From a virus (taxonomy: Duplodnaviria; Heunggongvirae; Uroviricota; Caudoviricetes), in the IMG/VR virus record IMGVR_UViG_2645727868_000012: a DNA stretch of 14,817 nucleotides. The stretch is one strand, 5' to 3'. Position numbers and translations under genes: made by a program. Below the pieces are notes generated by a model. The model saw only the letters and a list, made by a program, of their open reading frames with translations. It was not told the DNA's origin and made no database searches. Every line of letters begins with the position of its first letter. Position 1 is the first letter of the stretch. This document shows, in pieces, positions 1-14,817 of the stretch.

Positions 1-1293
<1,293 letters not shown>

Positions 1294-1315
1294 TACCCAA
1301 TTTTTCTGAATCTAA

Positions 1316-1335
1316 AAAGCGCCTGCGGGCGCTTT
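1316..1335 (+). terminator. rho-independent terminator-like hairpin downstream of serS
   Basis: Inverted repeat AAAGCGCC / GGCGCTTT with loop TGCG, 23 bp after the serS stop. Short T run after the stem. Confidence 0.55.
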
Positions 1336-1413
1336 AAGTAGAGGTTTAATCATTTGAAAATAAATGGATTTTATTTTTAAGTGTCCATATAACGTCCATC
1401 TTTGAATGCAAAA

Positions 1414-1449
1414 AGCCCACAGCTTCTATGCTGTGGGCTTTGTTTTTTG
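1414..1449 (+). terminator. strong rho-independent terminator hairpin
   Basis: Perfect 10-bp stem AGCCCACAGC / GCTGTGGGCT, loop TTCTAT, followed by TTGTTTTTT. Preceded by AAAAA, so could act in both directions. Confidence 0.6.
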
Positions 1450-1482
1450 GTGTCCTCATGAGTGAGGGAACCAAAAAGAAAA

Positions 1483-1504
1483 CCCGCAGTTTTTACGCTG
1501 CGGG
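1483..1504 (-). terminator. terminator-like hairpin, minus-strand oriented
   Basis: Stem CCCGCAG / CTGCGGG with 8-nt loop. On the minus strand it is followed by TTTTCTTTTT (complement of 1471-1482). Confidence 0.4.
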
Positions 1505-1930
1505 CTTGTTGTTCACGTCAACTGGAAATAGGGTGCCTTTTCGACCTTTACCCTGGCAACCGATTGACGGGGAAGTTGCCTTCCCCGTCGCGGTTTCCTT
1601 ACTGCTTACACTGTAAGAACGCCGCAAACTCCGCTCCCCAGAAACTCATCCGTATTTCACACAGCGAACCGTGCAGCATCCAGATGATGAGGATTGCCGT
1701 CACGCAGAATGTGATGGCCGTAAGCGATTTTTGCGACATAGCGCTTGCTCCTTTTTCGGGGAGGCGCTAACCTATCACTTGCTGAGGGTAGATGGTTAGG
1801 GCCTCGGGTTAACGTTAAAGTTGACTCGGGGCCTTTCCACATCTGGCCTTCGGGTATTCCCTCCGACCATCAGCCGAAAGGCACCCGCACGTAATCTATC
1901 GCTTTTTTGTTACTCCGGCAATTCTGCCTG

Positions 1931-2191
1931 TTAATTCTGAGATAAAGGCAAACTCATCTGATTGTTTCCCCTGTGTGAAGCTGGCAGATCATGCCACGGG
2001 ATACCTTCTGAAGAGTGAACGCCGGAGGCGTGTTTTGATGTGAATTTATGGAAAGCTTCCAGTGTTGAGAAGCATACGCCGCATTCCAGATTGTTACACT
2101 GGTAATACTTTTGCCGCACGGTGTTTGAATCATTTTCCGGACGACTGGTGCGGATACGGGCAGATGCGCCACAAAGCGGACAACGGAACAT
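1931..2191 (-). CDS. ogr: Ogr/Delta-family zinc-finger late-gene transcription activator homologue (86 aa)
   Basis: ATG at 2191 preceded by AAGGGAGG. Protein MFRCPLCG...YYQCNNLECG shows the C-x2-C-x24-C-x4-C spacing of the P2 Ogr family. C-terminal extension relative to 72-aa P2 Ogr. Confidence 0.8.
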   Translation of the reverse strand: MFRCPLCGASARIRTSRPENDSNTVRQKYYQCNNLECGVCFSTLEAFHKFTSKHASGVHSSEGIPWHDLPASHRGNNQMSLPLSQN

Positions 2192-2231
2192 AGCGACCTC
2201 CCTTAACGTGGTGCTGCCTATTCTAAGTTGC

Positions 2232-3341
2232 TCACTCTGTTTCCGCTATCCATTCCGGGATTTTTGCCTCAAGCTCAAGCTGCGTGGTAAAACCGCTGTT
2301 ATCAATGGTGTGCTCGGCTTTTGCAATGATCCAGTCCTGATTATCAATCTCGCTTTTAAATCCTGTTACCGTGCCATGCATTTCGGGGTAGAGTTCTGCA
2401 CGTCCACGCGCCAGCGTGATGGAGAATGATGCGGCTCCGCGTTGTAGTTGCTGCCACTTTGCCGCCGCTGCGCGTCTTGCTGCCTGCTCGTTCTGATAAG
2501 TCTTGCGTAACACAAACACATTGCCTTCCGCGCCTTCCATATAATCACCTTCGCGGCTGCTGCTTTTCTCCTTTTTGGGTTTTGGCGGTTTACGGCGTTT
2601 CACGCTGACTTTTTTCTTTTTCCCGTAATTAAGATCAAGCCAGTAAGCGCGTACCCCCGTATACGCTTCGCGGTCAGCAATGCGGAACTGATGGCGATCG
2701 CCGCTGCTGCGTGTGATGGCAAACGATGGCAACGGCTGGCCCTGTGCGTTCACGCCACCGCCGGGCATGATGAATAACAGATTACCGCTTTTTACCGTGG
2801 TGATTGCGCCCAGCATTTCCGCCATGCGCGTAAGGAAGGACATGTCGCTTTCTTCGGTCTGGTCGGCGTGGTCGATTTCGATATCCATCAGCATTTCGCT
2901 GATTTGCGGTTTCAGACCATACCGATGAGCGATGGCGGATACCACACGCTCAACGGTCACATCATGCCAGGACACCTCACGTTTAACGTTAAATTCATCC
3001 CGAAAATCTGCGCTTCTGGCTGAAACAGTCAGCCTGTCCGGCGGTCCTTCGTGAGCGATTTCATCAACAATGTAAGTGCCTTTTTCTGTCAGCGGTTCTC
3101 CTTTCCAGCCAATGAGAACCGTCAGGCGCGCGCCCCGTGGCGGTAGCTGCAACTGACCATCCGCATCATCCAGCGTGATGGTGAGCTGGTCCGCCTCAAA
3201 TCCCCGGTTGTCGGTCAGTGACAGGCTCATCAGGCGCTCTGCCACGCCTGACAGCGTTTTACCCTCCGCGAGAATATCAAAATCCGGCATTTTCACGGGG
3301 TCTGTGCCCTGACTGAGCAATTGCATGGTGGTGTCGGTCAT
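2232..3341 (-). CDS. D: P2 gpD-like tail protein (369 aa from ATG at 3341)
   Basis: Track ORF 2232..3473 begins at an upstream non-canonical start. The internal ATG at 3341 (MTDTTMQLLSQG...) has an AGGGAGGGAG Shine-Dalgarno and matches the gpD N-terminus as I recall it. Followed on the same strand by ogr, as in P2. Confidence 0.88.
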   Translation of the reverse strand: MTDTTMQLLSQGTDPVKMPDFDILAEGKTLSGVAERLMSLSLTDNRGFEADQLTITLDDADGQLQLPPRGARLTVLIGWKGEPLTEKGTYIVDEIAHEGPPDRLTVSARSADFRDEFNVKREVSWHDVTVERVVSAIAHRYGLKPQISEMLMDIEIDHADQTEESDMSFLTRMAEMLGAITTVKSGNLLFIMPGGGVNAQGQPLPSFAITRSSGDRHQFRIADREAYTGVRAYWLDLNYGKKKKVSVKRRKPPKPKKEKSSSREGDYMEGAEGNVFVLRKTYQNEQAARRAAAAKWQQLQRGAASFSITLARGRAELYPEMHGTVTGFKSEIDNQDWIIAKAEHTIDNSGFTTQLELEAKIPEWIAETE

Positions 3342-3498
3342 CTGCTCCCTCCCTGTGCGGCATGGTCGCATGTGCGTGCGGAGGGGGTTACTGCTTTTTG
3401 TTGTCGCCGTGGCGGGAGAACGGCGCAGGGGTGAGATTACGCGCGTGGTGGGTGATGATTGTTGCCGAATCATTTAACGGATACAAGGGGCTGAAGCT

Positions 3499-4683
3499 AT
3501 GAGTGAAACTCGTTTTCATGGTGCCCGTGTCACGGAAAGTACCGACCTGGTAACAGCGATTAATGATGTTGATTCCAGCGTTATCGGTATCGTGGCAACG
3601 GCGGATGATGCGGATGCGGAGCTGTTCCCGCTGAACAAGCCCACACTGCTGACCCGCGTCAATGACGTGCTGGGAAAATGCGGGACTACGGGGACGCTTT
3701 ATCGTGCGCTTAAGGCTATCGCAGACCAGGTGAGCACAAAAGTGATCGTCGTTCGCGTGGCTGAACACAAAGAAGAAGGCGGTAGGACGCAGGATCAACT
3801 GGTTATCGGTGGTTCTGAATCTGACGGCAGCTATACGGGGATGTATGCGCTGCTTGTTGCAGAGCAGGATGAAAGCATCGGATACCGTCCGCGTATTCTG
3901 GCCGCGCCGGAGCTGGACACGGAGGCGGTGACAAAATCCCTGTGCGTGATTGCGGGTAAACTGCGCGCGTTTGTGTATGCCACATGTCATGGTTGTAACA
4001 CGATGGCTGAGGCGATTACCTACCGCCAGAAATTCAACGAACGTGAGGTGATGCTCTTATGGCCTGACTTCATCGCCTACAACCCGAAAAGTGGCAAAAA
4101 CGAAACGTTCCCCGCGCCTGCTTATGCGTGCGGCCTTCGTGCGTACATTGACCATGAGCAGGGCTGGCACAAATCGCTGTCCAACGTTCCGGTTAAAAAT
4201 GTGCTGGGGATGTCGAGGCATGTGTTCTGGTCGTTACAGGCCGAAGACAGTGATGCCAACAGCCTCAACAACAAAGAAATCACGACCATTATTCGTCGTA
4301 ACGGGTTCCGCTTCTGGGGCAACCGCACACCGGAAACGAACGCCTACATCTTTGAGGTGTATACCCGAACCGCACAGGTGCTGGCTGATTCAATTGCGGA
4401 AGCGCAGTTTGAAACCATCGACAGTCCACTGACGCCTGCGAACGTGAAGGATGTTATCAGTGCCATCAGGGCAAAATTGGATTCGCTGGTTACTGCCGGG
4501 AAACTGATTGGCGCGGAGTGCTGGTATGACGTGGTGGATAACGGCACCACGGATTTACGTCAGGGGCGTGTGCGTATTCGCTACAAATATACGCCCGTTC
4601 CCCCGCTGGAAGACATGGAGCTTTACCAGACGTTTACTGATGAATTCTTTGGTCCCGCATTTGCGGTGCTGGGAGGTGCCTGA
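3499..4683 (+). CDS. FI: contractile tail sheath protein, P2 gpFI-like (394 aa)
   Basis: Length and sequence character of P2 FI sheath. ATG at 3499 with AAGGGG upstream. Stop overlaps the next start (TGATG). Confidence 0.95.
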   Translation: MSETRFHGARVTESTDLVTAINDVDSSVIGIVATADDADAELFPLNKPTLLTRVNDVLGKCGTTGTLYRALKAIADQVSTKVIVVRVAEHKEEGGRTQDQLVIGGSESDGSYTGMYALLVAEQDESIGYRPRILAAPELDTEAVTKSLCVIAGKLRAFVYATCHGCNTMAEAITYRQKFNEREVMLLWPDFIAYNPKSGKNETFPAPAYACGLRAYIDHEQGWHKSLSNVPVKNVLGMSRHVFWSLQAEDSDANSLNNKEITTIIRRNGFRFWGNRTPETNAYIFEVYTRTAQVLADSIAEAQFETIDSPLTPANVKDVISAIRAKLDSLVTAGKLIGAECWYDVVDNGTTDLRQGRVRIRYKYTPVPPLEDMELYQTFTDEFFGPAFAVLGGA

Positions 4684-5195
4684 TGGCTGTACCAAAACAT
4701 CTTCGCTTTTTTACGTTGTTTGTGGATGGTGAAAACGAAGTGGGTAAAGTGACATCCGTCACGCCGCCCAAACTGACGCGCAAAACCGACAGCTATCGTG
4801 GTGGTGGCATGATGGGAGCAGTAAGTATTGATCTCGGTCTGGACGACTCCGCGCTTGATGCGAGCTTTGTCATGGGGGGAGCTGTTCGTGCACTGTTCCT
4901 TAAGTATGGCGGCACGATTGACGGCACGCTGCTGCGTTTTGCGGGTGAATATTACACCGATGCAGAAAGCGATCTGTATGAAATCGAGATGCGCGGGCGT
5001 GTGACGGAAATTGATATGGGGGAGGCCAAACAGGGCGAAGCCACATCACACACTTACGCTGTCAAAAACACCTACTACAAGCTGAGCGTTAACGATCGCC
5101 CGCTGTGGGAAATCGACCTGTTGAACCACATCTACCGGAAGGACGGCAAGGACATTGTGCCTGACCGCATTCGTTCCGCGCTTGGGCTTGGCTGA
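4683..5195 (+). CDS. FII: tail tube protein, P2 gpFII-like (170 aa)
   Basis: GGGAGG 6 nt upstream of ATG 4683. Translational coupling with FI. Size and sequence as for P2 FII. Confidence 0.95.
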   Translation: MAVPKHLRFFTLFVDGENEVGKVTSVTPPKLTRKTDSYRGGGMMGAVSIDLGLDDSALDASFVMGGAVRALFLKYGGTIDGTLLRFAGEYYTDAESDLYEIEMRGRVTEIDMGEAKQGEATSHTYAVKNTYYKLSVNDRPLWEIDLLNHIYRKDGKDIVPDRIRSALGLG

Positions 5196-5250
5196 TAAGT
5201 AATATGCAGGCGGCGCAGTGCGTCGCCTCTGACTGAAAAGGAGACAACTG

Positions 5251-5625
5251 ATGAAAGATATCGATACTGAAACCCGGAATAACACCGTAGCGGATGATGT
5301 GACGTCAGGTGAGGATATGGCTGTCGAACGTGGTGTAAAACTTTCCCGGCCAATTGAGCGTGGTGCCGAAAAAATCACATATGTGGAGATCACCGGGGCT
5401 ATTGAGCAGGCGGGATCCCTGCGTGGTCTGTCGCTGTCTGATGTGCTGAATCTGAAAGCGGATACCATGTTCACGCTGTTGCCTCGCGTGACCTCGCCAC
5501 GACTGGATGAAGTGATGATTAAAAAAATGTCGTCACGCGATTTTATTCAGTTGTGCGCTGTGGCTGTAAATTTTATGAGCGAGCCAGACTCTGGCGCGAA
5601 GAGCGTGCAGGAGACGGCAGCGTAA
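5251..5625 (+). CDS. E: tail assembly chaperone, P2 gpE-like (124 aa)
   Basis: AAGGAG 8 nt upstream of ATG 5251. Position between tube and tape-measure genes. A -1 frame ORF overlaps its 3' end. Confidence 0.85.
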   Translation: MKDIDTETRNNTVADDVTSGEDMAVERGVKLSRPIERGAEKITYVEITGAIEQAGSLRGLSLSDVLNLKADTMFTLLPRVTSPRLDEVMIKKMSSRDFIQLCAVAVNFMSEPDSGAKSVQETAA

Positions 5626-5789
5626 TCACCCTGGTGTGCTTTGAGCACATCGAAGATCTGGTGGCGGATATTGCCGCCATTTTCAACTGGTCGCCCGCCG
5701 AAATCTTCATGATGACGCCCGGCGAAGTGGTTAGCTGGCGTGAGCGGGCGGCACTTCGCAGCGGGAATGCAGATAATGAAGACTCTTGA
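5251..5789 (+). CDS. E+E' fusion product predicted from programmed -1 ribosomal frameshift (about 179 aa if the slip is at 5568-5574)
   Basis: The -1 frame is open from 5523 to TGA 5787-5789 and overlaps the E 3' end. Candidate slippery heptamer A_AAT_TTT at 5568-5574 in the E frame. Analogous to P2 E/E+E' and lambda G/GT. Confidence 0.6.
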
Positions 5790-8583
5790 CATCCGGGTCG
5801 CTTTCAGCGCCGTTGACAGGCTGACCCGGCCTGCCGAAAACGCCCGCCGCCTGATGGGGCAGTTTGGTGACTCCATTCAGCGAACGCAGGGGGCGATCAA
5901 AAATCTCGAGCGTCAGGCGCGTTCATTTGAGCGCGCCCGCGACGCTGTCAGTAAAGCGGATGCGGGTATCGTGAAAGCACGACGCCAGCTTAACGCCCTT
6001 AATCAGTTACAACGCACGGGTACAGTGCTCAGCGAAAAACAACAAAAGCTGATGCAGCAGTTAAGCACCCGGCTTGAACGCCTGAATGAATCGCGCACAC
6101 GGGAAATTCAGAAAATGCGGGAGCTTGGCGGAGAACTGAAACGCCACGGCATTTCCCTGACAGGCAGCGATAACACCATCCAGCAGGCCATCAGACGCAC
6201 CGAACAATACAACAACCAGCTTGAACGCGAACGGCAGGCGCTTGCGCGTGTAACGCAGGCTCGTGAGCGGTATTCGCGCGCGCAGGAAACCGCGGGAAAA
6301 CTGAAAACAGGTGGTGCGCTGGCAATTGGTGCGGCAGCGGCGGGCGGCTATGCTGCCGGGCGTTTTTTGCAGCCCGCGATCGGGTTCGGCAAAGAGATGT
6401 CCCGCGTTCAGGCGCTGACGCGAATCGACAAAAACAGCCCGCAGTTTAAGGCGCTGCGTGAGCAGGCGTTAAAACTTGGCTCTGAAACACAGTTTACTGC
6501 GAGTGATGCCGCCAGTGGGCAGAGCTTTCTGGCAATGGCTGGTTTTACTCCGCAGGCCATTCAGGCCGCATTGCCCGGTGTTCTTAATATGGCGCTGGCA
6601 GGTGGCGTCGAACTCGGCGAGACGGCTGATATAGGCTCCAATATCCTCACACAGTTCAACCTGACAGCCGATCAAATGGACCGGGTTGGCGATACGCTGA
6701 CAGCGGCATTCACCCGGACCAATACTGATTTACGCGCGCTGGGCGAAACCATGAAGTATACCGGTCCGGTTGCCGCAAAACTTGGTATCAGTCTTGAAGA
6801 AGCGGCAGCCATGGCCGGGATGCTTGCCAATAATGGTCTTCGTGGAAGCGATGCTGGTACGGCCATGCGCGCAAGTCTGTCCCGCCTTGCATCACCGCCA
6901 AAAGCTGCGGCTGATGCGCTGAAAGAGCTGGGGGTGTCAGTTGCTGACGCCAGAGGCAAAATGCGCCCGATGGAGGATGTGCTGCTTGATCTCTATAAGG
7001 CGACACAAAAATACGGACAGGTGGACCAGGTTTCCTTCTTCAAGGACATCGCCGGAGAAGAGGCGTTCGTTGGTTTGCAGACGCTTGTTGCGGCGGCTGG
7101 TTCAGGAGAGCTGCAAAAACTGACCAGAGAATTGCAGGGGGCAAGGGGAGAGGCCGATCGCGTTGCAAAAGTAATGGCCGATAATCTTGATGGGGACCTG
7201 AAAAATCTCGACAGCGCATGGGAAGGTCTTCGTATTCGCATCAGTGATCTGGTTGACGGTCCGCTGCGTTCTGTCACGCAGTGGCTCACGCGGGTGCTTG
7301 AAAAAATCACCTCGCTGGCGCAGGCCCATCCGGTACTGACGCGCCAGCTACTGATAGCAGGCGGTGCGTTGCTGGCAATGACTGCAACGGTTGGCTCGTT
7401 GTCGCTGGCTATTGGTGTGCTTGCTGGCCCGCTGGCAAAACTGCGTCTTGGCTTTTCCCTCCTGACCGGTTCAATGAATGCTGTCAGACTCCTGCCAGCA
7501 CTATGGGGAATGGTGACGGGTTCCGTTTCGTTACTGGGGGGCGCTATCGGGGCGTTGTTCAGTCCGGTCGGCCTTATCGTGGCTGCGCTTGCCGGAGCTG
7601 CCGTTCTCATCTGGAAATACTGGGATCCCATCAGGGCATTTTTTGCCGGGGTGTTCAGCGGGATTATGGAAAGGCTGACCCCGTTGCGCGAAACCTTTGA
7701 ACGGTTTGGTCCTGTTTTTGACGCAATCGGGAGTGGGATCAGCCAGGTGTTTAACTGGTTTAAATCGCTGCTGTCTCCGATGGAGTCCAGCAAGGAAACT
7801 CTGGATAAATGTACCAGTGCTGGCGAGATATTCGGTAACGTTCTTGGCGGTGCGTTACAACTTGTTCTGACACCTGCAAAAATGTTGCTGGATACGCTGG
7901 CGTGGATACTTGAAAAGCTTGGTGTGCTTCCGGATGAAGCGGAAAGGGCGCGCAAGAAAATCGAAGACGCACAGCGTGCGGCCATTCTTCAGGACAAGGT
8001 TGCCTTGCTTCAGGGGGACCTGGCGAAAATCAATCCGCCGAAGCCTGTGGAAAATGGCAATGGCACCGGAGGTGATAACCCCAAAGACAATAAACCGCTC
8101 ACAGACAGCAATACCGGTACGCTGCGCAGACTCAGCAAAATTGCTGATAACACAGGTAAGCTGGTTGAGGAGACGAAAAAACGCATTGGCCCCGGCGATA
8201 TTGTCTTTAAAAACCTGCCCCGAGCACTTGCTGTTCGTGGGGAGTGGCAGGAGCGGAAGATTGCGCAGGTCAGTAAGCCTGCCCCCGCAATTAATATCAC
8301 ACCCGTGGTCCCGGCTCCGCTGCCTCCGGCGCTGGTCCCTGTTGTTGCGGCCAGCTCCCGCCCGGTGGCGGAGGCTATACGATCTCCAGTGGCATCAGTT
8401 CCTGTAACTTCCCGTAACCGGGAGCCTGTTGCCTCCGGATTTGGTGGTGAAATTCATGTTCATCTGCATAACGTTGTTACGCAGAATCCCCGCGAACTGG
8501 CGAAACTGGTCGGTGAAATGGTCAGGGCAGAAATGGAACGGCGCGCCCGTGCCGGGCGTGGCAGTTTTTACGATAAAGATTGA
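5767..8583 (+). CDS. T: tail tape measure protein, P2 gpT-like (about 938 aa)
   Basis: Long ORF after E/E' with coiled-coil-rich N-terminal half, hydrophobic central stretches and Pro/Ala-rich C-terminal region. Track start 5740 is GTG; first ATG is 5767 (alternative 5776). Start uncertain, overlaps the E' end. Confidence 0.9.
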   Translation: MQIMKTLDIRVAFSAVDRLTRPAENARRLMGQFGDSIQRTQGAIKNLERQARSFERARDAVSKADAGIVKARRQLNALNQLQRTGTVLSEKQQKLMQQLSTRLERLNESRTREIQKMRELGGELKRHGISLTGSDNTIQQAIRRTEQYNNQLERERQALARVTQARERYSRAQETAGKLKTGGALAIGAAAAGGYAAGRFLQPAIGFGKEMSRVQALTRIDKNSPQFKALREQALKLGSETQFTASDAASGQSFLAMAGFTPQAIQAALPGVLNMALAGGVELGETADIGSNILTQFNLTADQMDRVGDTLTAAFTRTNTDLRALGETMKYTGPVAAKLGISLEEAAAMAGMLANNGLRGSDAGTAMRASLSRLASPPKAAADALKELGVSVADARGKMRPMEDVLLDLYKATQKYGQVDQVSFFKDIAGEEAFVGLQTLVAAAGSGELQKLTRELQGARGEADRVAKVMADNLDGDLKNLDSAWEGLRIRISDLVDGPLRSVTQWLTRVLEKITSLAQAHPVLTRQLLIAGGALLAMTATVGSLSLAIGVLAGPLAKLRLGFSLLTGSMNAVRLLPALWGMVTGSVSLLGGAIGALFSPVGLIVAALAGAAVLIWKYWDPIRAFFAGVFSGIMERLTPLRETFERFGPVFDAIGSGISQVFNWFKSLLSPMESSKETLDKCTSAGEIFGNVLGGALQLVLTPAKMLLDTLAWILEKLGVLPDEAERARKKIEDAQRAAILQDKVALLQGDLAKINPPKPVENGNGTGGDNPKDNKPLTDSNTGTLRRLSKIADNTGKLVEETKKRIGPGDIVFKNLPRALAVRGEWQERKIAQVSKPAPAINITPVVPAPLPPALVPVVAASSRPVAEAIRSPVASVPVTSRNREPVASGFGGEIHVHLHNVVTQNPRELAKLVGEMVRAEMERRARAGRGSFYDKD

Positions 8584-8595
8584 GGAGTCATGGCC

Positions 8596-9084
8596 ATGAT
8601 GATGATCTACGGCATGTTTGTTTTTGAGCTGCGCACGCTGCCGCATCAGCAGTTACAGCAAAACAAAAGCTGGCGGCATGTGAAAAATGAACGCGTTAAC
8701 CGTTCAGCAAGCTGGCAGTATATCGGTGCAGGTGATGATCGCATCGTTCTTTCTGGTGTGCTTTATCCTGAAATTACAGGTGGCGAAGTGTCGCTGTCGC
8801 TGCTGACCACGCAGGCGTATACAGGACGACCCTGGCCTTTGATTGATGGCGTCGGGCAGATTTACGGCATGTATGTCCTGACTGAAACGAATACGACCCG
8901 CTCCGAGTTTGATCGCTACGGTAAGGCGAAAAAGATAGAATTTTCACTGACTCTTGAACGCTGTGATGAGGATTTGCGGGAGCGCCTGCAATCCTCATCG
9001 TTCAGTGATATGCTGTCCGGCTTCAAAGATAAGGTGACATCATCTCTTAACAGCGCGGCCAGTTCAGTTAAAGGGCTGTTCTGA
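8596..9084 (+). CDS. U: tail protein, P2 gpU-like (about 162 aa)
   Basis: GAGGAG at 8582-8587. ATG 8590 is only 2 nt from it, so ATG 8596 (MMMIYGMF...) is the more likely start. Sequence character of P2 gpU. Confidence 0.9.
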   Translation: MMMIYGMFVFELRTLPHQQLQQNKSWRHVKNERVNRSASWQYIGAGDDRIVLSGVLYPEITGGEVSLSLLTTQAYTGRPWPLIDGVGQIYGMYVLTETNTTRSEFDRYGKAKKIEFSLTLERCDEDLRERLQSSSFSDMLSGFKDKVTSSLNSAASSVKGLF

Positions 9085-9093
9085 TTTAACACA

Positions 9094-9123
9094 AAAACCG
9101 CTAATGGTCAGATTAGCGGTTTT
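9094..9123. terminator. bidirectional terminator hairpin between convergent U and invertase genes
   Basis: Perfect stem AAAACCGCTAAT / ATTAGCGGTTTT with loop GGTCAG. T-rich on both sides. The 3' arm overlaps the invertase stop codon. Confidence 0.6.
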
Positions 9124-9712
9124 CATTTTCCTGAGTCTGCCCGGTTGTTTCTTCAGTCTGTATATCGCCTACAGGGTGATAACGATAAATCGTCGATGTG
9201 CCAATGCCGTAAATTATTGCCAGTTGTTTTCTGTCGTGCCCGTTTTTGATTAGCCTTGCTATTTGCTCATGCTGTTCTTTTGTCAGCTTCGGTCGACGTC
9301 CGCCTGTGCGCCCCCTTGCGCGCGCTGCCGCCAGCCCGGCCAGTGTACGTTCAACAATTAATTCACGTTCCATTTCAGCCAGGGCACCCATCACGTGGAA
9401 GAAAAAACGCCCCATTGGAGAAGATGTGTCTATGCTGTCGGTCAGACTGCGAAAATTAATCCCTCGCTCCCGTAGTTCCCCGACGAGAGAAATCAGATGT
9501 TTCATGCTTCGCCCGAGGCGATCCAGTTTCCAGACAACCAGCGTGTCACCTTTTTGAAGGCGCTTTAAAGCGCGTTTTAATCCCGGTCGGTCTGTCTTTG
9601 TCCCGCTTAATTTATCTTCAAATATTTGTTCACATCCTGCACAAACAAGAGCGTTTCGTTGCAGGTCTGTATTCTGGTCATTTGTTGATACCCTTACATA
9701 GCCAATCAGCAC
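9113..9712 (-). CDS. pin: site-specific DNA invertase, serine recombinase of the Pin/Gin/Cin/Hin family (199 aa from GTG 9712)
   Basis: Protein ...LIGYVRVSTNDQNTDLQRNAL...LVVWKLDRLGRS... has the catalytic Ser motif and C-terminal helix-turn-helix region typical of Gin-family invertases. Track start 9730 is TTG; GTG 9712 has a GGGAGA Shine-Dalgarno 6 nt upstream. Lies beside the crossover site. Confidence 0.93.
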   Translation of the reverse strand: MLIGYVRVSTNDQNTDLQRNALVCAGCEQIFEDKLSGTKTDRPGLKRALKRLQKGDTLVVWKLDRLGRSMKHLISLVGELRERGINFRSLTDSIDTSSPMGRFFFHVMGALAEMERELIVERTLAGLAAARARGRTGGRRPKLTKEQHEQIARLIKNGHDRKQLAIIYGIGTSTIYRYHPVGDIQTEETTGQTQENENR

Positions 9713-9766
9713 ACTGAATCTCCCGTCCAAAAGCGCAAATCATGCCATGCAGGCCAGAAACGGCCA

Positions 9767-9792
9767 TTATTTAAAACCTCGGTTTACGAGAA
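9767..9792. promoter_or_regulatory. left crossover site (gix/pix-type), 26 bp
   Basis: TTATTTAAAACC TC GGTTTACGAGAA: two 12-bp half-sites around a central dinucleotide. Matches the Gin gix sequence as I recall it at about 22 of 26 positions. Coincides exactly with the outer boundary of the inverted repeat. Confidence 0.8.
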
Positions 9793-10488
9793 CTCGGCAC
9801 AAGCGGGGAGAAAATACCGTTACTCAGTACAGCGAATACCTGGACCAATCGACAAACATTCAGCGGTGGCCTTTCTGGGGAACTGTCCGGCAATGCCGCT
9901 ACTGCAACAAAGCTGAAAACAGCACGAAAAATTGCTGGAGTTGGTTTTGATGGTTCTAGCGATATTTCAATTAGTGCCAAAAATGTCAATGCATTTGCAC
10001 TCCGACAAACAGGTAATACTGTTAATGGTGATACATCCGTTGGATGGAATTGGGATAGTGGTGCATATAACGCCATGATTGGTGGTGCATCTGCATTAAT
10101 TCTTCACTTTAATATAAATGCTGGTAGCTGTCCTGCCGTACAATTCCGTGTGAATTATAAAAATGGTGGCATTTCCTACAGGTCGGCTCGTGATGGTTAT
10201 GGGTTTGAATTAGGTTGGTCAGATTTCTATACCACGACACGAAAACCTTCAGCGGGAGATGTTGGTGCATATACGCGGACAGAATGTAACTCAAGGTTTA
10301 TTACAGGTATTCGCCTTGGCGGTCTGTCATCTGTTCAGACATGGAATGGTCCCGGCTGGTCTGACAGGTCAGGTTATGTCGTTACGGGTTCAGTTAACGG
10401 AAACCGTGATGAATTAATTGATACAACACAGGCAAGGCCAATTCAGTATTGCATTAATGGGACGTGGTATAACGCGGGGAGTATTTAA
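9775..10488 (+). CDS. tail-fibre C-terminal variable cassette (Sv-like), open frame without start codon; about 237 codons
   Basis: Frame is open from just after TAA 9772-9774 to TAA 10486-10488. First in-frame ATG is 10075 (the track ORF). Ends with the ...INGTWYNAGSI motif shared with the opposite cassette. Confidence 0.75.
   Translation, partial: NLGLRELGTSGEKIPLLSTANTWTNRQTFSGGLSGELSGNAATATKLKTARKIAGVGFDGSSDISISAKNVNAFALRQTGNTVNGDTSVGWNWDSGAYNAMIGGASALILHFNINAGSCPAVQFRVNYKNGGISYRSARDGYGFELGWSDFYTTTRKPSAGDVGAYTRTECNSRFITGIRLGGLSSVQTWNGPGWSDRSGYVVTGSVNGNRDELIDTTQARPIQYCINGTWYNAGSI
9777..9891. repeat. left arm of the inverted repeat (about 115 bp, 3 mismatches to right arm)
   Basis: Direct comparison of 9777-9891 with the reverse complement of 12416-12530. 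Encodes the shared fibre segment [40 protein letters not shown]. Confidence 0.85.
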
Positions 10489-10490
10489 CG

Positions 10491-11024
10491 ATGATGCACT
10501 TAAAAAACATTACTGCTGGCAACCCTAAAACAAAAGAGCAATACCAGCTAACAAAGCAATTTAACATCAAATGGCTTTATTCAGCTGATGGAAAAAACTG
10601 GTATGAGGAACAAAAGAATTTCCAGCCAGACACTTTGAAAATGGTCTATGACCATAACGGCGTTATTATTTGTATTGAAAAGGATGTTTCAGCAATTAAT
10701 CCGGAAGGCGCAAGCGTCGTTGAATTACCTGATATTACAGCAAATCGCCGGGCTGATATTTCGGGGAAATGGATGTTCAAAGATGGCGTAGTGGTAAAGC
10801 GAACTTATACCGAGGAAGAGCAGAGGCAACAAGCGGAAAATGAAAAGCAGAGCCTGTTGCAACTTGTCAGGGATAAAACTCAGCTATGGGACTCACAGCT
10901 ACGGCTGGGCATCATTTCCGACGAGAATAAACAAAAATTAACCGAGTGGATGCTCTATGCGCAGAAAGTCGAATCCACAGACACCTCCAGCCTGCCAGTA
11001 ACATTTCCCGAACAACCTGAATGA
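10491..11024 (+). CDS. tfa: tail fibre assembly protein (Tfa / Mu U-like), 177 aa
   Basis: ATG 2 nt after the cassette stop. About 175 aa MMHLKNI... protein with the conserved Tfa N-terminus. Paralogous to the minus-strand copy. Confidence 0.9.
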   Translation: MMHLKNITAGNPKTKEQYQLTKQFNIKWLYSADGKNWYEEQKNFQPDTLKMVYDHNGVIICIEKDVSAINPEGASVVELPDITANRRADISGKWMFKDGVVVKRTYTEEEQRQQAENEKQSLLQLVRDKTQLWDSQLRLGIISDENKQKLTEWMLYAQKVESTDTSSLPVTFPEQPE

Positions 11025-11027
11025 GAC

Positions 11028-11057
11028 AAGGCCCGATAACGGGCCTTAATTTTTATT
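11028..11057. terminator. bidirectional terminator between the convergent tfa genes
   Basis: Stem AAGGCCCG / CGGGCCTT, loop ATAA, followed by AATTTTTATT. Confidence 0.65.
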
Positions 11058-11580
11058 CAGGCTTTTGTGGCCATTCAGGATTTGCCGTATCCACACGGTT
11101 GACCAGAACACTGTAGCGTTCCCATGCTTCCAGTCGTGTGCGTTCCTCGTCTGTTGCCATATTCAGCCTGACAGCGCGTTCCAGCGGCTGGATGACTGAT
11201 TCAGCTTCGGAAAGCAATGCGGCCTTTTGTGATTCGGCCTGTTGTTGCTGTTCGTCAGCCGTATAAATCCGTTTAACCACAGCTCCGTCCTTAAACATCC
11301 ACTTACCGGAATCATCGGTCCGACGATTGGCCGTTATATCGGGAACCTCGACGACGCTAAAACCTTCGGGATTAAGCGTGGAGGCATCTCTGGTGATGGC
11401 GACAATAATATTATTTTCATCGTAAACAATCTTTATGGTGTCTGGCTGAAAGTTTTTCACTTCCTCATACCAGTTTTTTCCGTCCTCAGAGTAAAGCCAG
11501 ATAACTCCGTGTTTCTTTGTTAACTCATACTGTTCCAGTGTTTTAGCATTACCCGCTTTTATGTTCTTTAAGTGCATCAT
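11053..11580 (-). CDS. tfa: tail fibre assembly protein (Tfa' / Mu U'-like), 175 aa
   Basis: ATG at 11580 one nt after the upstream cassette stop. Same family as 10491..11024, with a divergent C-terminal half. Confidence 0.9.
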
Positions 11581-11581
11581 A

Positions 11582-12574
11582 TTAAACGCTCGCTACATTA
11601 TACCAGGTGCCATTTATATACTTTTGAACGGGTCTGTAATAAACACCCGCTATATTATCGGCAGAGTTAGACCCTGTATCCTGAACATTAATACCAGACA
11701 ATACATGACCTGAAGGGCACTGGAAATTCCATGTTCGCCAGTTGTTCACTCCATAATATTGCTGTGAACCAAGTCGAACATCTTTCACATAACGGGAATC
11801 AAAGTTACCGTAATCCGAGGGATTAACACGCCCCGTAATATTTATGGTCTTATTACTTTGAATGCTTCCGGGAACAAAGCGCATAACATGGACGTAATTA
11901 GCATAAACATCCAGATTACCATCGCCATTTTGTTTAAAGCCCGTGTCATTATCACCCAATACAATCGAATTACCGCCAAGAGCACTGGATGTTCCGATAC
12001 CCAGTGCACCATTCAGTTGACCACCAGATAACGGCAGTGCACCAACATCTCCTGCTGAAGGTTTTCTGGTGGTGGTGTAAAATTCGGACCAGTCGGCTTC
12101 AAAACCATAACCATCACGGGCTGAACGATAAAAAATACCGCCATTTTTATAATTAATCCGAAACTGAGCTGCAGGACAACTTCCGTCTCCCATATAAAAA
12201 TGAATAATTAACGTTGATGCACCACCAATATTTGCGTTATAGGCTCCGCTACTCCAGTTCCATCCAACTGCTTTATCATTCGCAACGGTGCTTCCTGTTT
12301 TCCCTAAGGCAAACGCACCAACATGACTTGCTTTTAATGTGATATCGGAGGAACCATCAAAAGCCACATTGCTTATTTTCCTGGCAGTTTTTAATTTTGC
12401 AGCTGTAGAAGCATTGCCGGATAGTTCACCAGAAAGGCCACCGCTGAATGTTTGTCGATTAGTCCAGGTATTCGCTGTACTGAGTAACGGTATTTTCTCC
12501 CCGCTTGTGCCGAGTTCTCGTAAACCGAGGTCGCTCTTGTTTGTGCAGGATATGAACAAATATTTGAAGATAAA
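11582..12574 (-). CDS. tail-fibre C-terminal variable cassette (Sv'-like), open frame without ATG; about 330 codons
   Basis: Minus-strand frame open from just after the stop at 12575-12577 (plus coordinates) to the stop at 11582-11584. Only a TTG at 12559, just outside the crossover site. Shares the scaffold with the left cassette, then has a longer, different tip. Confidence 0.75.
12416..12530. repeat. right arm of the inverted repeat
   Basis: Reverse complement matches 9777-9891 with 3 mismatches. Lower identity continues further into the cassettes. Confidence 0.85.
12515..12540. promoter_or_regulatory. right crossover site, hybrid: canonical inner half and centre, non-canonical outer half
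   Basis: TTCTCGTAAACC GA GGTCGCTCTTGT. The inner half and centre are identical to the left site. The outer half is invertase coding sequence, not a gix half-site. Confidence 0.6.
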
Positions 12575-12664
12575 TTAAGCGGAACAAGGACAGGCCGACC
12601 TGGATTAAAACGTGCTTTAAAGCGCCTTCAAAAAGGTGACGCACTGGTTGTCTGAAAACTGGAC
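12530..12664 (+). pseudogene. 5' fragment of a second Pin-family invertase gene (about codons 21-60), frameshifted and truncated
   Basis: Translation [41 protein letters not shown] then a frameshift. About 90% nucleotide identity to the corresponding part of the intact invertase gene. Homology stops near 12664. Confidence 0.8.
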
Positions 12665-12799
12665 TGACTGGTTCACTGTATGCGGCATCTTGTCGTGCTG
12701 GTGGTGGAAGCCTAGAAAAAGTATCGGGTGTTACTGAACCGTGTTGATACATCAACTGCACCTGATATTGAGTGGCCTACGAACCCTGTCAGGGAGTAA
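12665..12799 (+). pseudogene. 3' remnant of a tail-fibre-assembly-like gene (in-frame TAG, indel)
   Basis: Translates to ...[32 protein letters not shown], matching the C-terminus of ORF 13579..13848 with an in-frame stop. No start codon. Confidence 0.6.
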
Positions 12800-12848
12800 T
12801 CATTGGGATTATGCCGCAGCACGTCTTAAGCAAGAACGTGCTGCGGTT
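12696..12848. repeat. direct repeat copy 1 (tfa 3' end plus downstream hairpin)
   Basis: About 90% identical to 13751-13898. Contains an 11-bp perfect stem CCGCAGCACGT / ACGTGCTGCGG at 12814-12846. Confidence 0.7.
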
Positions 12849-12853
12849 GGATG

Positions 12854-13522
12854 CTATTTTTTCCCTGAAGCGGAAAACATTACTACAGTACCTTGAACCT
12901 TGGTTTTAACATTCTCGAAATGCTCTGAGAGTATATGTGTTAAGCCTTCTTCGGAATCTTTTGTGTTTGAAAAGATGCCTTTCTGATTGTAAATGCGCAT
13001 CAGTTTTTGACCGAAGCTATTGTGCACAACTCCATCGCCAAGAATTGTGGCTCCGTATAGAGTTCCATCGTCAGTTAAGGCCTGCGCCGCATTGCGTATT
13101 ACACAGCTTTTTGTAGATATATTTCCAGGCAGGCAGTGAAGAAGGTAAAACATGGAAATGGAATCAAATTGACCATGTAACGCCGCGGGATAAGGTTCAA
13201 AAACATCATGGCTAATTTTATGTTTAATTTTTGATTCCCCAGCCCTTGTAGATGCCGCGTTCAGGCTAGCTTCGTTCAAATCCATTAAAGATATCAGACT
13301 ACTCTCAGGTACGTGAGTAAGGTAAAACCCAGTTCCAACACCAATATCCAGATGGTTGTTACCTACATGTTCCAGAAAGTGTGGAAGAAGGTGTTCCTTT
13401 GTAGGACATCCCCATGCAAGCCGATTTGATACTCCCAAAACCCACCAGTCATAAAGCTTTAGGGTAAGTGGTGTGTAAATTTTAGCCCCATCATCTGTGT
13501 TTTTTTTCATTGATTTCACCAT
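12854..13522 (-). CDS. class I SAM-dependent methyltransferase, substrate unknown (222 aa)
   Basis: Motif I HLDIGVGTGFY, acidic post-I SLMDLNE, motif II-like FDSISMFYLLHCLP, motif III-like LTDDGTLY. No DPPY/NPPY or PCQ DNA-methyltransferase motifs. Markedly AT-rich relative to the flanks. ATG 13522, alternative ATG 13510. Confidence 0.85.
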   Translation of the reverse strand: MVKSMKKNTDDGAKIYTPLTLKLYDWWVLGVSNRLAWGCPTKEHLLPHFLEHVGNNHLDIGVGTGFYLTHVPESSLISLMDLNEASLNAASTRAGESKIKHKISHDVFEPYPAALHGQFDSISMFYLLHCLPGNISTKSCVIRNAAQALTDDGTLYGATILGDGVVHNSFGQKLMRIYNQKGIFSNTKDSEEGLTHILSEHFENVKTKVQGTVVMFSASGKK

Positions 13523-13578
13523 GTTATAGTTTTATTTGTGAATTAAATCAATTATGGCGATGAATTACAAGGGGTTAA

Positions 13579-13848
13579 ATGCTGCCGCAGCATAGCGATA
13601 TTGAAATAGCCTGGTATGCTTCGATACAGCAGGAGCCGAATGGCTGGAAGACCGTCACCACACAGTTCTACATCCAGGAATTCAGTGAGTATATTGCGCC
13701 ACTGCAGGATGCTGTAGATCTGGAAATCGCAACGGAGGAAGAAAGATCGTTGCTGGAGGCATGGAATAAATATCGGGTATTGTTGAATCGTGTTGATACA
13801 TCAACTGCACCTGATATTGAGTGGCCTGCAAATCCTGTCAGGGAGTAA
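13579..13848 (+). CDS. short tail-fibre-assembly-like protein (89 aa, Tfa C-terminal domain homologue)
   Basis: C-terminal 50 aa (...[37 protein letters not shown]) resemble the Tfa C-termini in the invertible segment. N-terminal 40 aa unique. ATG at 13579. Confidence 0.65.
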
Positions 13849-13898
13849 TCATTGGGATTATGCCGCAGACACGTCGTATGCAGGAACGTGCTGCGGTT
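13751..13898. repeat. direct repeat copy 2
   Basis: Matches 12696-12848. The hairpin here is imperfect (one bulge). Confidence 0.7.
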
Positions 13899-13962
13899 AG
13901 TTTGTGAGCTTTCGATAGTGGTTGTTATTTTTGCCCTTATTTGTTCCGGAGGCCATGGTTCA

Positions 13963-14133
13963 ATGGTCCGTCTGCCCCCTGTGGTGATGTCAGCAAAATC
14001 AGCCACTGCGCGAACCACAATAGCCCGGGAAGATGCTGAAGATCACCAGGTAAAGCTGTCAGCGCAGAAACTGGAAGAACTGCTCGCATCAATGGTTAAG
14101 GATGAGGTTGATCGCAATGATGGGATTTATTGA
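13963..14133 (+). CDS. hypothetical small protein (56 aa)
   Basis: GGAGG at 13948-13952, ATG 13963 (10-nt spacing). Charged and helical-looking sequence. Track ORF starts further upstream at a non-ATG codon. An in-frame extension past the TGA is noted in findings. Confidence 0.4.
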   Translation: MVRLPPVVMSAKSATARTTIAREDAEDHQVKLSAQKLEELLASMVKDEVDRNDGIY

Positions 14134-14227
14134 CGTCAGCGAGAGCAGAAGGAAGAACTGAATAACCTGAATGATTTACGCTCAATCAGAGCGATGGCGA
14201 TTAGCGGCAATCACGCTCGATAAAATT

Positions 14228-14250
14228 AACCCCGGTGATCATCCGGGGTT
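14228..14250. terminator. bidirectional terminator between the small ORF and the Rha gene
   Basis: Stem AACCCCGG / CCGGGGTT around palindromic loop TGATCAT, followed by TTTTG on the plus strand and TTAATTTTA on the minus strand. Confidence 0.65.
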
Positions 14251-14259
14251 TTGCATTCA

Positions 14260-14817
14260 TTAAAACCGCATCAACCTTTCCACCAATTGTTCTTTACGGG
14301 CAACGATCCACCCATGTTGCTCCAGATAAAATTTAAACCGTTCCAGCGTGCATACCATCGCATCGGCGGGGACTTTTTCTGTGAACTCGACCTGACCGTG
14401 TTTATCGAAGTGGATCAGTAATGCGCATCCATTATTTGGGGCGGGGGAGTTTTGTGCTGCAGGAGGACGTTTGTGGAGTTCTTCTTCCATTGCGTTAAAT
14501 TTTTCAATGTAAGCTTCTTTTAGTCTGGCTGCTTTTTTGCCAGTAAATCCCATTACGAGGAACATGAAGCCGTCTTTTGTGATCAGGTAGCATCGTGATT
14601 CACGTTCTGCGCCGTTGCCAATTTCGACAGTCTGAACATCGGCCGAAAAGTTGGCTGATGTAAATTCGGGAGAGCAGTCGAGTGTGTCAATCTTAGCTAA
14701 AACGTGTTTATGTTGTTTATCGAAGTAGTCGGCAACAGCTTGAGAGGTGGTAACCAGGCGACCATCTTTGAAAAAGACTTTTGGTGACTCGTTAGAAAAA
14801 GTTATAGCTGTATTCAT
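14260..14817 (-). CDS. phage regulatory protein, Rha family (185 aa); start codon at the window edge
   Basis: N-terminal region ...VTTSQAVADYFDKQHKHVLAKIDTL...RCYLITKDGFMFLVMGFTGKKAARLKEAYIEKFNAME fits the Rha/antirepressor-like domain pattern. The ATG is the last 3 nt of the window, so the true start could lie outside. Confidence 0.8.
   Translation of the reverse strand: MNTAITFSNESPKVFFKDGRLVTTSQAVADYFDKQHKHVLAKIDTLDCSPEFTSANFSADVQTVEIGNGAERESRCYLITKDGFMFLVMGFTGKKAARLKEAYIEKFNAMEEELHKRPPAAQNSPAPNNGCALLIHFDKHGQVEFTEKVPADAMVCTLERFKFYLEQHGWIVARKEQLVERLMRF

Follow-up and report, generated by a model that had tools for sequence, protein, structure and literature searches.

The tail fiber switches of Mu (Gin/G), P1 (Cin/C), and e14 (Pin/P), which belong to the Din family, share a serine invertase, 26-bp crossover sites with a 2-bp crossover, and mirror-image cassettes with assembly genes; the constant part of the fiber gene lies outside the invertible segment, distal to the invertase. 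The switch examined here is carried on a 14,817-nucleotide stretch of viral DNA (IMG/VR record IMGVR_UViG_2645727868_000012; hereafter, the window). In its intact form in related genomes it is alike in all of these respects, but unlike the Mu, P1, and e14 systems it has a P2-like host phage and a P2 H-type fiber (Phage_tail_fib and Phage_fiber_2 domains).

Escherichia phage P88 (Xuanwuvirus P88, Peduoviridae) is 93% identical to the window over positions 1900-9800, and the two share the gene order ogr, D, then, on the other strand, sheath, tube, E, tape measure, and U, followed by the invertase, the silent cassette, and two assembly genes. The head-to-head order of D and sheath and the position of the invertase beside U were considered as the scar of an old invertase-mediated inversion, but they are instead the natural P88-like gene order. 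P88, which exists as a free phage, has H complete: full-length H (2295 nt), I, and J come after its assembly genes, whereas the window is without everything past the right crossover site.

The switch of prophage Phi1 in E. coli EC958 has the same left site, 2774-bp segment, invertase, and both cassettes as the window. In EC958 and all other complete genomes the right site is whole and leads into H; in the window, DNA of the Phi4 locus stands in place of both H and the outer half-site. The EC958 Phi4 switch, the source of window positions 12532-14817, has crossover sites that differ very little from the Phi1 sites. Phi4, a lambdoid prophage close to trp, carries a constant fiber part of its own but lacks a working invertase, which makes it the opposite kind of orphan. 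The element is the known Gin/Pin-type switch of ST131 Phi1, and the absence of its constant part from the window is most likely due to a mis-join or contig concatenation.

Layout of the invertible segment and its flanks

Judged by sequence identity, the host prophage of the switch is P88-like (Xuanwuvirus, P2-family) and integrated beside serS in E. coli ST131. The features of the window on which the comparison turns, and the one that is found only in intact loci, are as follows.

9113-9712, minus strand: Pin/Gin-type serine DNA invertase, 199 aa from GTG 9712 (the mechanical ORF reaches TTG 9730)
9767-9792: left (invertase-proximal) 26-bp crossover site, TTATTTAAAACC-TC-GGTTTACGAGAA, central dinucleotide at 9779-9780, by direct reading
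9775-10488, plus strand: left variable fiber cassette, 237 codons, from translation, with a weak gp37_C match
10491-11024, plus strand: tail fiber assembly gene of the left cassette, 177 aa (Caudo_TAP, E=3.6e-37)
11053-11580, minus strand: tail fiber assembly gene of the right cassette, 175 aa (Caudo_TAP, E=4.2e-38)
11582-12531, minus strand: right variable fiber cassette, 316 codons, from translation (gp37_C, E=8e-8)
12232-12531: stretch of 300 nt identical in Phi1 (serS) and Phi4 (trp); last Phi1/Phi4 mismatch at 12231
12515-12531: 17-bp remnant of the right site (inner half TTCTCGTAAACC, central GA, and GGT), by comparison with the Phi1 locus L001, the Phi4 locus L002, and published sites
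12531-12532: junction of Phi1 and Phi4 DNA, from aligning the window by BLAST to the two loci of strain 4/1-1
12532-12655, plus strand: truncated Phi4 invertase pseudogene (EC958_1582-type), codons about 20-59 and a stop, 100% identical to L002 7255-7378
12656-14817: Phi4 right flank with assembly-gene fragments, 100% identical to L002, from its annotation and Pfam
12854-13522, minus strand: class I SAM methyltransferase of the Phi4 flank
14260-14817, minus strand: Rha regulator of the Phi4 flank
Intact loci only: constant part of H, joining the right site as GGT-ATTCGATAACGG, followed by I, J, W, and V; sequence tag …TTATCGAATACC

The invertase gene product contains Pfam Resolvase (E=1.5e-50) and HTH_7 (E=4e-13) domains and matches the Mu Gin structures 3UJ3 and 4M6F over its full length (E about 1e-99); in RefSeq the gene is named "recombinase family protein." As in the Din family, then, the segment is adjoined by a serine recombinase that has its resolvase catalytic domain at the N-terminus and its HTH at the C-terminus. 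By comparison with Gin and Hin, a Fis-dependent recombinational enhancer would be expected in the 5′ portion of the invertase gene.

The two fiber cassettes are mirror images to a degree far above chance (inverted repeats: 157 nt, 90%; 330 nt, 72%), and each C-terminal cassette has its own assembly gene, again as in the Din family. In the left plus frame a TAA stop stands at 9772-9774, and the 237 codons that follow, to 10488, are open; the first in-frame ATG, at 10075, would give a protein of 137 aa. The right minus frame is closed by a TAA (the complement of 12575-12577), and TTG 12559 opens a 325-aa reading frame. The initial annotation had placed the left site and all of these stops and starts correctly, and its statement that a full-length fiber cannot be encoded here in either orientation holds for the window as written. 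It had also noted invertase-derived DNA to the right of the switch, which was borne out: 12532-12655 is a plus-strand invertase fragment and forms an inverted repeat with the resident invertase gene (9476-9653 and 12532-12709, 83%).

From this layout the initial annotation had described a switch orphaned on both sides. The right side is indeed abnormal, whereas the left side has the usual layout of the P88-like family. In P88 and in all ST131 genomes, it is invariably the cassette next to the invertase that is silent, and the lack of a constant part at the left cassette is part of the normal design; the left cassette is silent in this orientation and, when flipped, becomes the 3′ part of a 661-aa fiber, called as an H protein in the flipped assemblies L003, L004, and L006.

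The crossover sites are letter for letter those published for EC958 Phi1 and Phi4, the left site being identical to "Phi1_3prime" (Table 3, Forde et al. 2014, PMC4134206). The left site is whole and the right one partial: the outer half-site is missing, with 4/12 bases matching there, whereas both inverted 26-bp sites are whole in related genomes. The intact right site is TTCTCGTAAACC-GA-GGTATTCGATAA in L001, and its counterpart in L002 is …GGTTTTAGATAA; the segment including both sites, 9767-12540, measures 2774 bp. That the right site was retained only in part is something the earlier reader had no way to notice.

The intact switch in related genomes

Positions 1-12531 of the window are 100% identical to the serS-linked P88-like (P2-family) prophage of ST131, named Phi1 in EC958, and correspond to 946022-958552 of strain 4/1-1 (NZ_CP023844.1). 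In intact genomes the fiber gene H, on the minus strand, has a constant part of 424 codons that enters the right site in frame; in both 4/1-1 and phage P88, the right site leads into full-length minus-strand H and then I, J, W, and V. The constant 5′ fiber part outside the segment is thus missing from the window and present in identical loci elsewhere. A fiber N-terminal ORF entering a site, which the initial annotation had named as grounds for refuting its reading, is present in every related complete genome examined.

Joined to the right cassette, the H constant part encodes 740 aa, and joined to the left cassette, in the flipped segment, it encodes 661 aa; both forms have been called in public assemblies (L003-L009). 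The right cassette of the window encodes, without a difference, the C-terminal part of the 740-aa protein (L001 12083-14305), whose translation reads …AAVIEY up to the junction, and is the expressed 3′ part in intact genomes. By homology with Mu Gin, the invertase at 9113-9712 would bind the two inverted 26-bp sites and exchange strands at the central TC/GA; inversion would place the H constant part in frame with the right cassette, giving the 740-aa fiber and the 175-aa assembly protein, and in the opposite orientation with the left cassette, giving the 661-aa fiber and the 177-aa assembly protein.

The junction of the H constant part with the right cassette is present in 226 complete genomes and that with the left cassette in 161, so that both switch states are common and the segment occurs in both orientations, as in the Din family, at the same locus in other genomes. 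In one EC958 culture, each switch state accounted for about 50% of the PacBio reads (Forde et al. 2014, PLoS One 9:e104400, PMC4134206). Both orientations, which the initial annotation had proposed to look for in a population, are accordingly on record for this locus in other genomes and in that culture. In other assemblies, the 175-aa assembly protein and the methyltransferase were found in normal arrangements only. The switch has already been described and its flipping seen experimentally (Forde et al. 2014); the window adds nothing new on phage biology.

The junction between Phi1 and Phi4 DNA

To the right of 12531, the window is 100% identical to 1488006-1490291 of the 4/1-1 chromosome, on the same strand as the Phi1 part. 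This flank belongs to another prophage, Phi4, which lies near trp and approximately 530 kb from Phi1. Over the whole 14.8 kb, no base differs from the two 4/1-1 loci, and the change of locus falls exactly where Phi1 and Phi4 diverge, at the end of the 300-nt repeat. The junction shows no microhomology; it falls 3 nt rightward of the central GA, the position of invertase cleavage, and skips 122 nt of the Phi4 locus (L002 7133-7254, TTTAGATAATGGCGG…GCAACGAAA). The skipped interval holds the outer half-site, the promoter, and the first ~19 codons of the truncated invertase. RefSeq describes the Phi4 pseudogene as "recombinase family protein, missing C-terminus," and the Phi4 invertase is truncated in EC958 (Forde et al. 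2014, PMC4134206).

A 48-mer spanning the junction had 0 matches in 5,426 complete E. coli genomes, and a junction 30-mer was not found in GTDB representatives, metagenome contigs, or IMG/VR. The complete genomes include roughly 290 with a Phi1-type prophage, and the absence is less telling if the source genome lies outside the collections searched. No record among the complete genomes covers at least 80% of the query, so the adjacency is unseen even with tolerance for the 122-nt gap, and the ORFs that span the junction (the 325-aa TTG ORF and ORFs of 100 aa and 79 aa) are not on record.

In a de Bruijn graph, a node ends at 12531 for every k tested. The part to the right starts with the first Phi4-specific k-mer at k=21, a modest fit given that about half of positions suit some odd k and that nearby DNA also lies in short nodes. 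The boundary test had been considered as strong proof and was downgraded; its left end is informative.

Readings of the junction

Taken together, the comparisons indicate that the join between 12531 and 12532 is most likely a collapsed-repeat mis-join in the source assembly and not a biological orphaning. As would be expected of a mis-join, each side is 100% identical to one of two widely separated loci in a single related genome, the sequence changes over where an exact repeat shared by these loci ends, and independent assemblies of this lineage lack the junction. The sequence would leave Phi1 at 12531, where contigs would have been joined at the collapsed 300-nt repeat, and continue in the Phi4 flank. 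Since 122 nt are skipped without overlap, scaffolding or contig concatenation without Ns would be needed. A point against this reading is that a plain de Bruijn mis-join usually retains a shared k-mer overlap, and this junction has none. Because prophages of one genome share long exact repeats, assemblies tend to break or mis-join at invertible segments, and mis-joins at such shared repeats can mimic "orphan" switches, which calls for caution. E. coli NA114 (CP002797) is an ST131 short-read pseudo-molecule in which contigs ending at repeats were concatenated and prophage pieces wrongly joined; its break in Phi1 is at EC958 position 958223 (about window position 9668, from the EC958-NA114 BLAST table) and differs from that of the window, so NA114 was rejected as the source.

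A real rearrangement, private to this strain, is unlikely but is the alternative that fares best. Illegitimate recombination, possibly triggered by the invertase, would have joined the Phi1 segment to the truncated Phi4 invertase gene in a strain whose chromosome had earlier undergone another large inversion or offered an additional compatible site, with essential DNA kept as a result; the switch would be truly orphaned and probably frozen, as its right site is without the outer half-site. The break does fall inside a crossover site and its partner inside an invertase gene, it has been proposed that the invertase of Phi1 works in trans at the nearly identical sites of Phi4 (PMC4134206), and recombination by Cin at quasi-sites has been reported (Iida and Hiestand-Nauer 1986/87, as cited in PMC4134206). 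By reasoning only, a two-inversion route is topologically possible given a third locus or a prior inversion. Against this, the join misses the central GA, where serine invertases cut, by 3 nt, and the Phi4 sequence there is not site-like, with 0-3/12 half-site matches in either register by hand comparison. Topologically, if sites exist in Phi1 and Phi4 alone, the order invertase, segment, Phi4 flank is what a ~530-kb deletion of the chromosome from serS to trp would leave.

On the E. coli map, the serS-trp region holds many essential genes, and such a deletion would therefore be lethal in the normal ST131 layout. A real junction would also require two or three independent rare events, and it is absent from all of the complete genomes, including those with this prophage. 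We give little credence to an aberrant event at the right site of one ST131 isolate that stranded both cassettes and moved the H constant part elsewhere. If true, it would be an invertase-associated rearrangement between prophages 530 kb apart, of moderate relevance to ST131 genome plasticity, in which a phage invertase system drives large-scale inter-prophage rearrangement of the chromosome and disables its own switch. A crossover between the Phi1 site and a quasi-site (cixQ-type) in the second invertase gene was considered separately and rejected: it is off the cleavage dinucleotide by 3 nt, and Phi4 around L002 7238-7263 matches the half-site consensus at 0-3/12 (hand comparison).

Less probable still is a mixed case, in which the 122-nt deletion in Phi4 is real and the passage from Phi1 to Phi4 reflects either an assembly error or homologous exchange within the 300-nt stretch. 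The last 300 nt before the junction are equally Phi1 and Phi4, and the junction can be described as Phi4 without L002 7133-7254; however, the start of the deletion would have to coincide with the exact base at which Phi1 and Phi4 diverge, flanking microhomology is absent, and such a deletion is in no complete genome.

That the switch evolved as an orphan, whether as a silent cassette reservoir, a source of free tip proteins of 137 aa starting at ATG 10075, or a decaying remnant, as the initial annotation had proposed, is very improbable: although neither cassette has a constant part in the window as written, identical DNA has the constant H part in other genomes, the arrangement is in no other genome, and the base-for-base identity to intact loci leaves neither decay nor adaptation visible, there being no decay because there are 0 base differences from a strain with the intact arrangement. 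The 137-aa ORF is also reported by gene callers in other assemblies, where it is simply the silent cassette of an ordinary switch.

The Phi1 locus and its tail-fibre switch

Positions 1-12531 of the window are 100% identical to 946022-958552 of the chromosome of E. coli ST131 strain 4/1-1 (NZ_CP023844.1), and many further ST131 chromosomes are also 100% identical over this stretch. It contains serS and then a P2-family prophage, with ogr and D on one strand, sheath, tube, E, tape measure and U on the opposite strand, and next the invertase and its segment. A rearrangement was dropped as an explanation of this gene order, which is natural in P88-like phages (genus Xuanwuvirus). By its sequence, the prophage is Phi1 of strain EC958, for which a 2.8-kb invertible tail-fibre segment and two 26-bp sites have been published; in one EC958 culture, the PacBio reads divided about equally between the two orientations of the segment (Forde et al. 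2014, PMC4134206). The left site in the window matches the published Phi1 site in every letter.

Crossover site and invertase sequences of the window
9767-9792: left crossover site, 26 bp, TTATTTAAAACC-TC-GGTTTACGAGAA, read from the sequence
Left of the segment, minus strand: complete serine invertase gene (Resolvase and HTH_7; E ~1e-99 to Mu Gin)
12532-12655, plus strand: invertase fragment to the right of the segment, within an inverted repeat with the resident invertase gene

In translation, the plus frame of the left cassette (9775-10488) has TAA at 9772-9774 and then 237 open codons up to 10488, with its earliest in-frame ATG at 10075; the minus frame of the right cassette (11582-12531) has a stop at 12575-12577 and a sole start, TTG, at 12559. 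Two convergent tail-fibre assembly genes (Caudo_TAP) lie between the cassettes, whose ends make inverted repeats of 157 nt (90%) and 330 nt (72%). The site, stops, starts and invertase DNA on either side described in the initial annotation are all present. It had also called the switch orphaned, and in the window neither cassette does have a constant part of the fibre gene H. In 4/1-1 and phage P88, however, the minus strand beyond the right site carries the H constant part, followed by I, J, W and V. Positions 12083-14305 of the Phi1-locus stretch of 4/1-1 (L001) translate to a 740-aa protein, constant over residues 1-424, which reads …AAVIEY/ and continues over the site as the window's right cassette; where an assembly has the segment flipped, the product is 661 aa long, the 424 residues plus the 237-codon left cassette. 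The H-constant/right-cassette junction occurs in 226 of 5,426 complete genomes and the H-constant/left-cassette junction in 161; the lack of a constant part on the left cassette is thus its usual silent state, and the window departs from the norm on its right side only. The switch itself is real, already known and normally functional. Readings of the locus as a silent reservoir, a source of free tip proteins or a decaying remnant found essentially no support: the window corresponds base for base to the two loci of an intact-layout strain (4/1-1), with 0 differences over 14.8 kb and therefore no sign of age or decay.

Elsewhere in Phi1, the D gene (2232-3473, minus strand) and the tail sheath gene (3499-4683, plus strand) lie head to head, 25 nt apart by longest ORF; RefSeq places the D start much later, at 3032, and the Pfam GPD match covers D only from residue 135 on. 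P88-like phages share this divergent arrangement, whereas in P2 D follows U in one operon. A Hok/Gef-family toxin gene (1599-1739, minus strand) lies between serS and ogr, and phage P88 also carries one, annotated there as MokW-like. U and the invertase gene converge, and a GC-rich hairpin between them at 9085-9112 (aaaaaccgctaatggtcagattagcggtttt), with A and T runs on its sides, looks like a bidirectional terminator shared by both.

The junction at 12531/12532

Positions 12532-14817 are 100% identical to 1488006-1490291 of the 4/1-1 chromosome, on the same strand and ~530 kb away. They belong to the right flank of a lambdoid prophage close to trp, Phi4 in EC958 naming, which has its own invertible segment followed by a truncated invertase pseudogene. 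Across the join the window reads …TTCTCGTAAACC-GA-GGT/CGCTCTTGTTTGTGCAGG…; Phi1 and Phi4 are identical over the 300 nt from 12232 to 12531, the window through GGT fits either prophage, and from CGCTC on it continues in the Phi4 invertase remnant at codon ~20. Compared with the Phi4 locus, the window lacks 122 nt, comprising the outer half-site, the promoter and ~19 codons.

Serine invertases cut at the central dinucleotide (GA). No microhomology was found at 12531/12532, and a clean exchange by the invertase with a quasi-site is unsupported, since the join lies 3 nt rightward of the central GA and the Phi4 sequence there is not site-like (0-3/12 matches per half-site).

The resident invertase gene (9476-9653) and the Phi4 remnant (12532-12709) are inverted repeats of each other over 178 nt (83%) and lie on either side of the segment. 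Gin/Hin-type enhancers are usually located in this part of the invertase gene, and the window as written has two copies of that region, a by-product of the join.

Mis-assembly or rearrangement

The orphaned state was probably produced by a mis-join or concatenation at a collapsed repeat. The 300-nt perfect Phi1/Phi4 repeat would have collapsed in assembly, and a short-read contig ending at the repeat end, 12531, would then have been wrongly joined or concatenated to the Phi4 flank. The change of locus falls precisely at the end of this repeat, and short-read contigs end at the ends of such repeats. In a k-mer analysis of the Phi1 and Phi4 loci, 12531 ended a node at each k tried, and at k=21 the Phi4-specific k-mers begin at the right-hand start, 12532. 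This k=21 fit is only modest evidence for an artefact: some value of k will suit many positions, and at k=21 the DNA nearby is broken up as well. Concatenation that misplaced prophage parts is documented for short-read pseudo-molecules of ST131 (NA114); the window is not NA114 itself, since that record's break in Phi1 is at another point.

It is unlikely that a real, private rearrangement made the junction. The order invertase-segment-Phi4 flank is topologically a deletion product, if compatible sites exist only in Phi1 and Phi4, and such a deletion would take out the ~530 kb between serS and trp, where many essential genes map in E. coli; a chromosome with this junction would first need further large rearrangements to be viable. 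The junction 48-mer had 0 matches among 5,426 complete E. coli genomes, and the 30-mer was not found in GTDB representatives, metagenome contigs or IMG/VR. No complete genome places the Phi1 segment beside the Phi4 flank, even with the 122-nt gap permitted, and no ORF spanning the junction is on record. A real join would probably leave the switch frozen, since its right site is without the outer half-site. A mixed case, with a real 122-nt deletion in Phi4 and a passage from Phi1 into Phi4 by assembly error or homologous exchange within the 300-nt repeat, is very improbable.

In another assembly (L008, from scaffold KZ269417.1 of GCA_002244545.1), both cassettes lie at 7500-12528 without an adjoining constant part, and the end of the 300-nt repeat occurs twice more, at 10151-10454 and 10981-11284, ahead of a 543-aa fibre N-terminal gene; here too the assembly probably went wrong at this repeat.

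The Phi4 switch and its flank

In strain 4/1-1, the Phi4 switch (7117-7375 of the Phi4-locus stretch, L002) has complete sites, its own constant fibre part and only a 59-codon invertase remnant. It is a genuine "invertase-less" switch, a mirror image of the case proposed for the window in the initial annotation; it has been seen flipping, and the Phi1 invertase has been proposed to act in trans (Forde et al. 2014, PMC4134206). Within the flank, two direct repeats of ~148 bp at 12702-12848 and 13751-13898 share 88.5% identity. Both originate in the 3' ends of tail-fibre assembly genes, and they bracket a class I SAM-dependent methyltransferase gene (12854-13522, minus strand), which looks like cargo that was inserted between fragments of assembly genes. 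In a very large number of E. coli assemblies this methyltransferase adjoins lambdoid tail-fibre genes.
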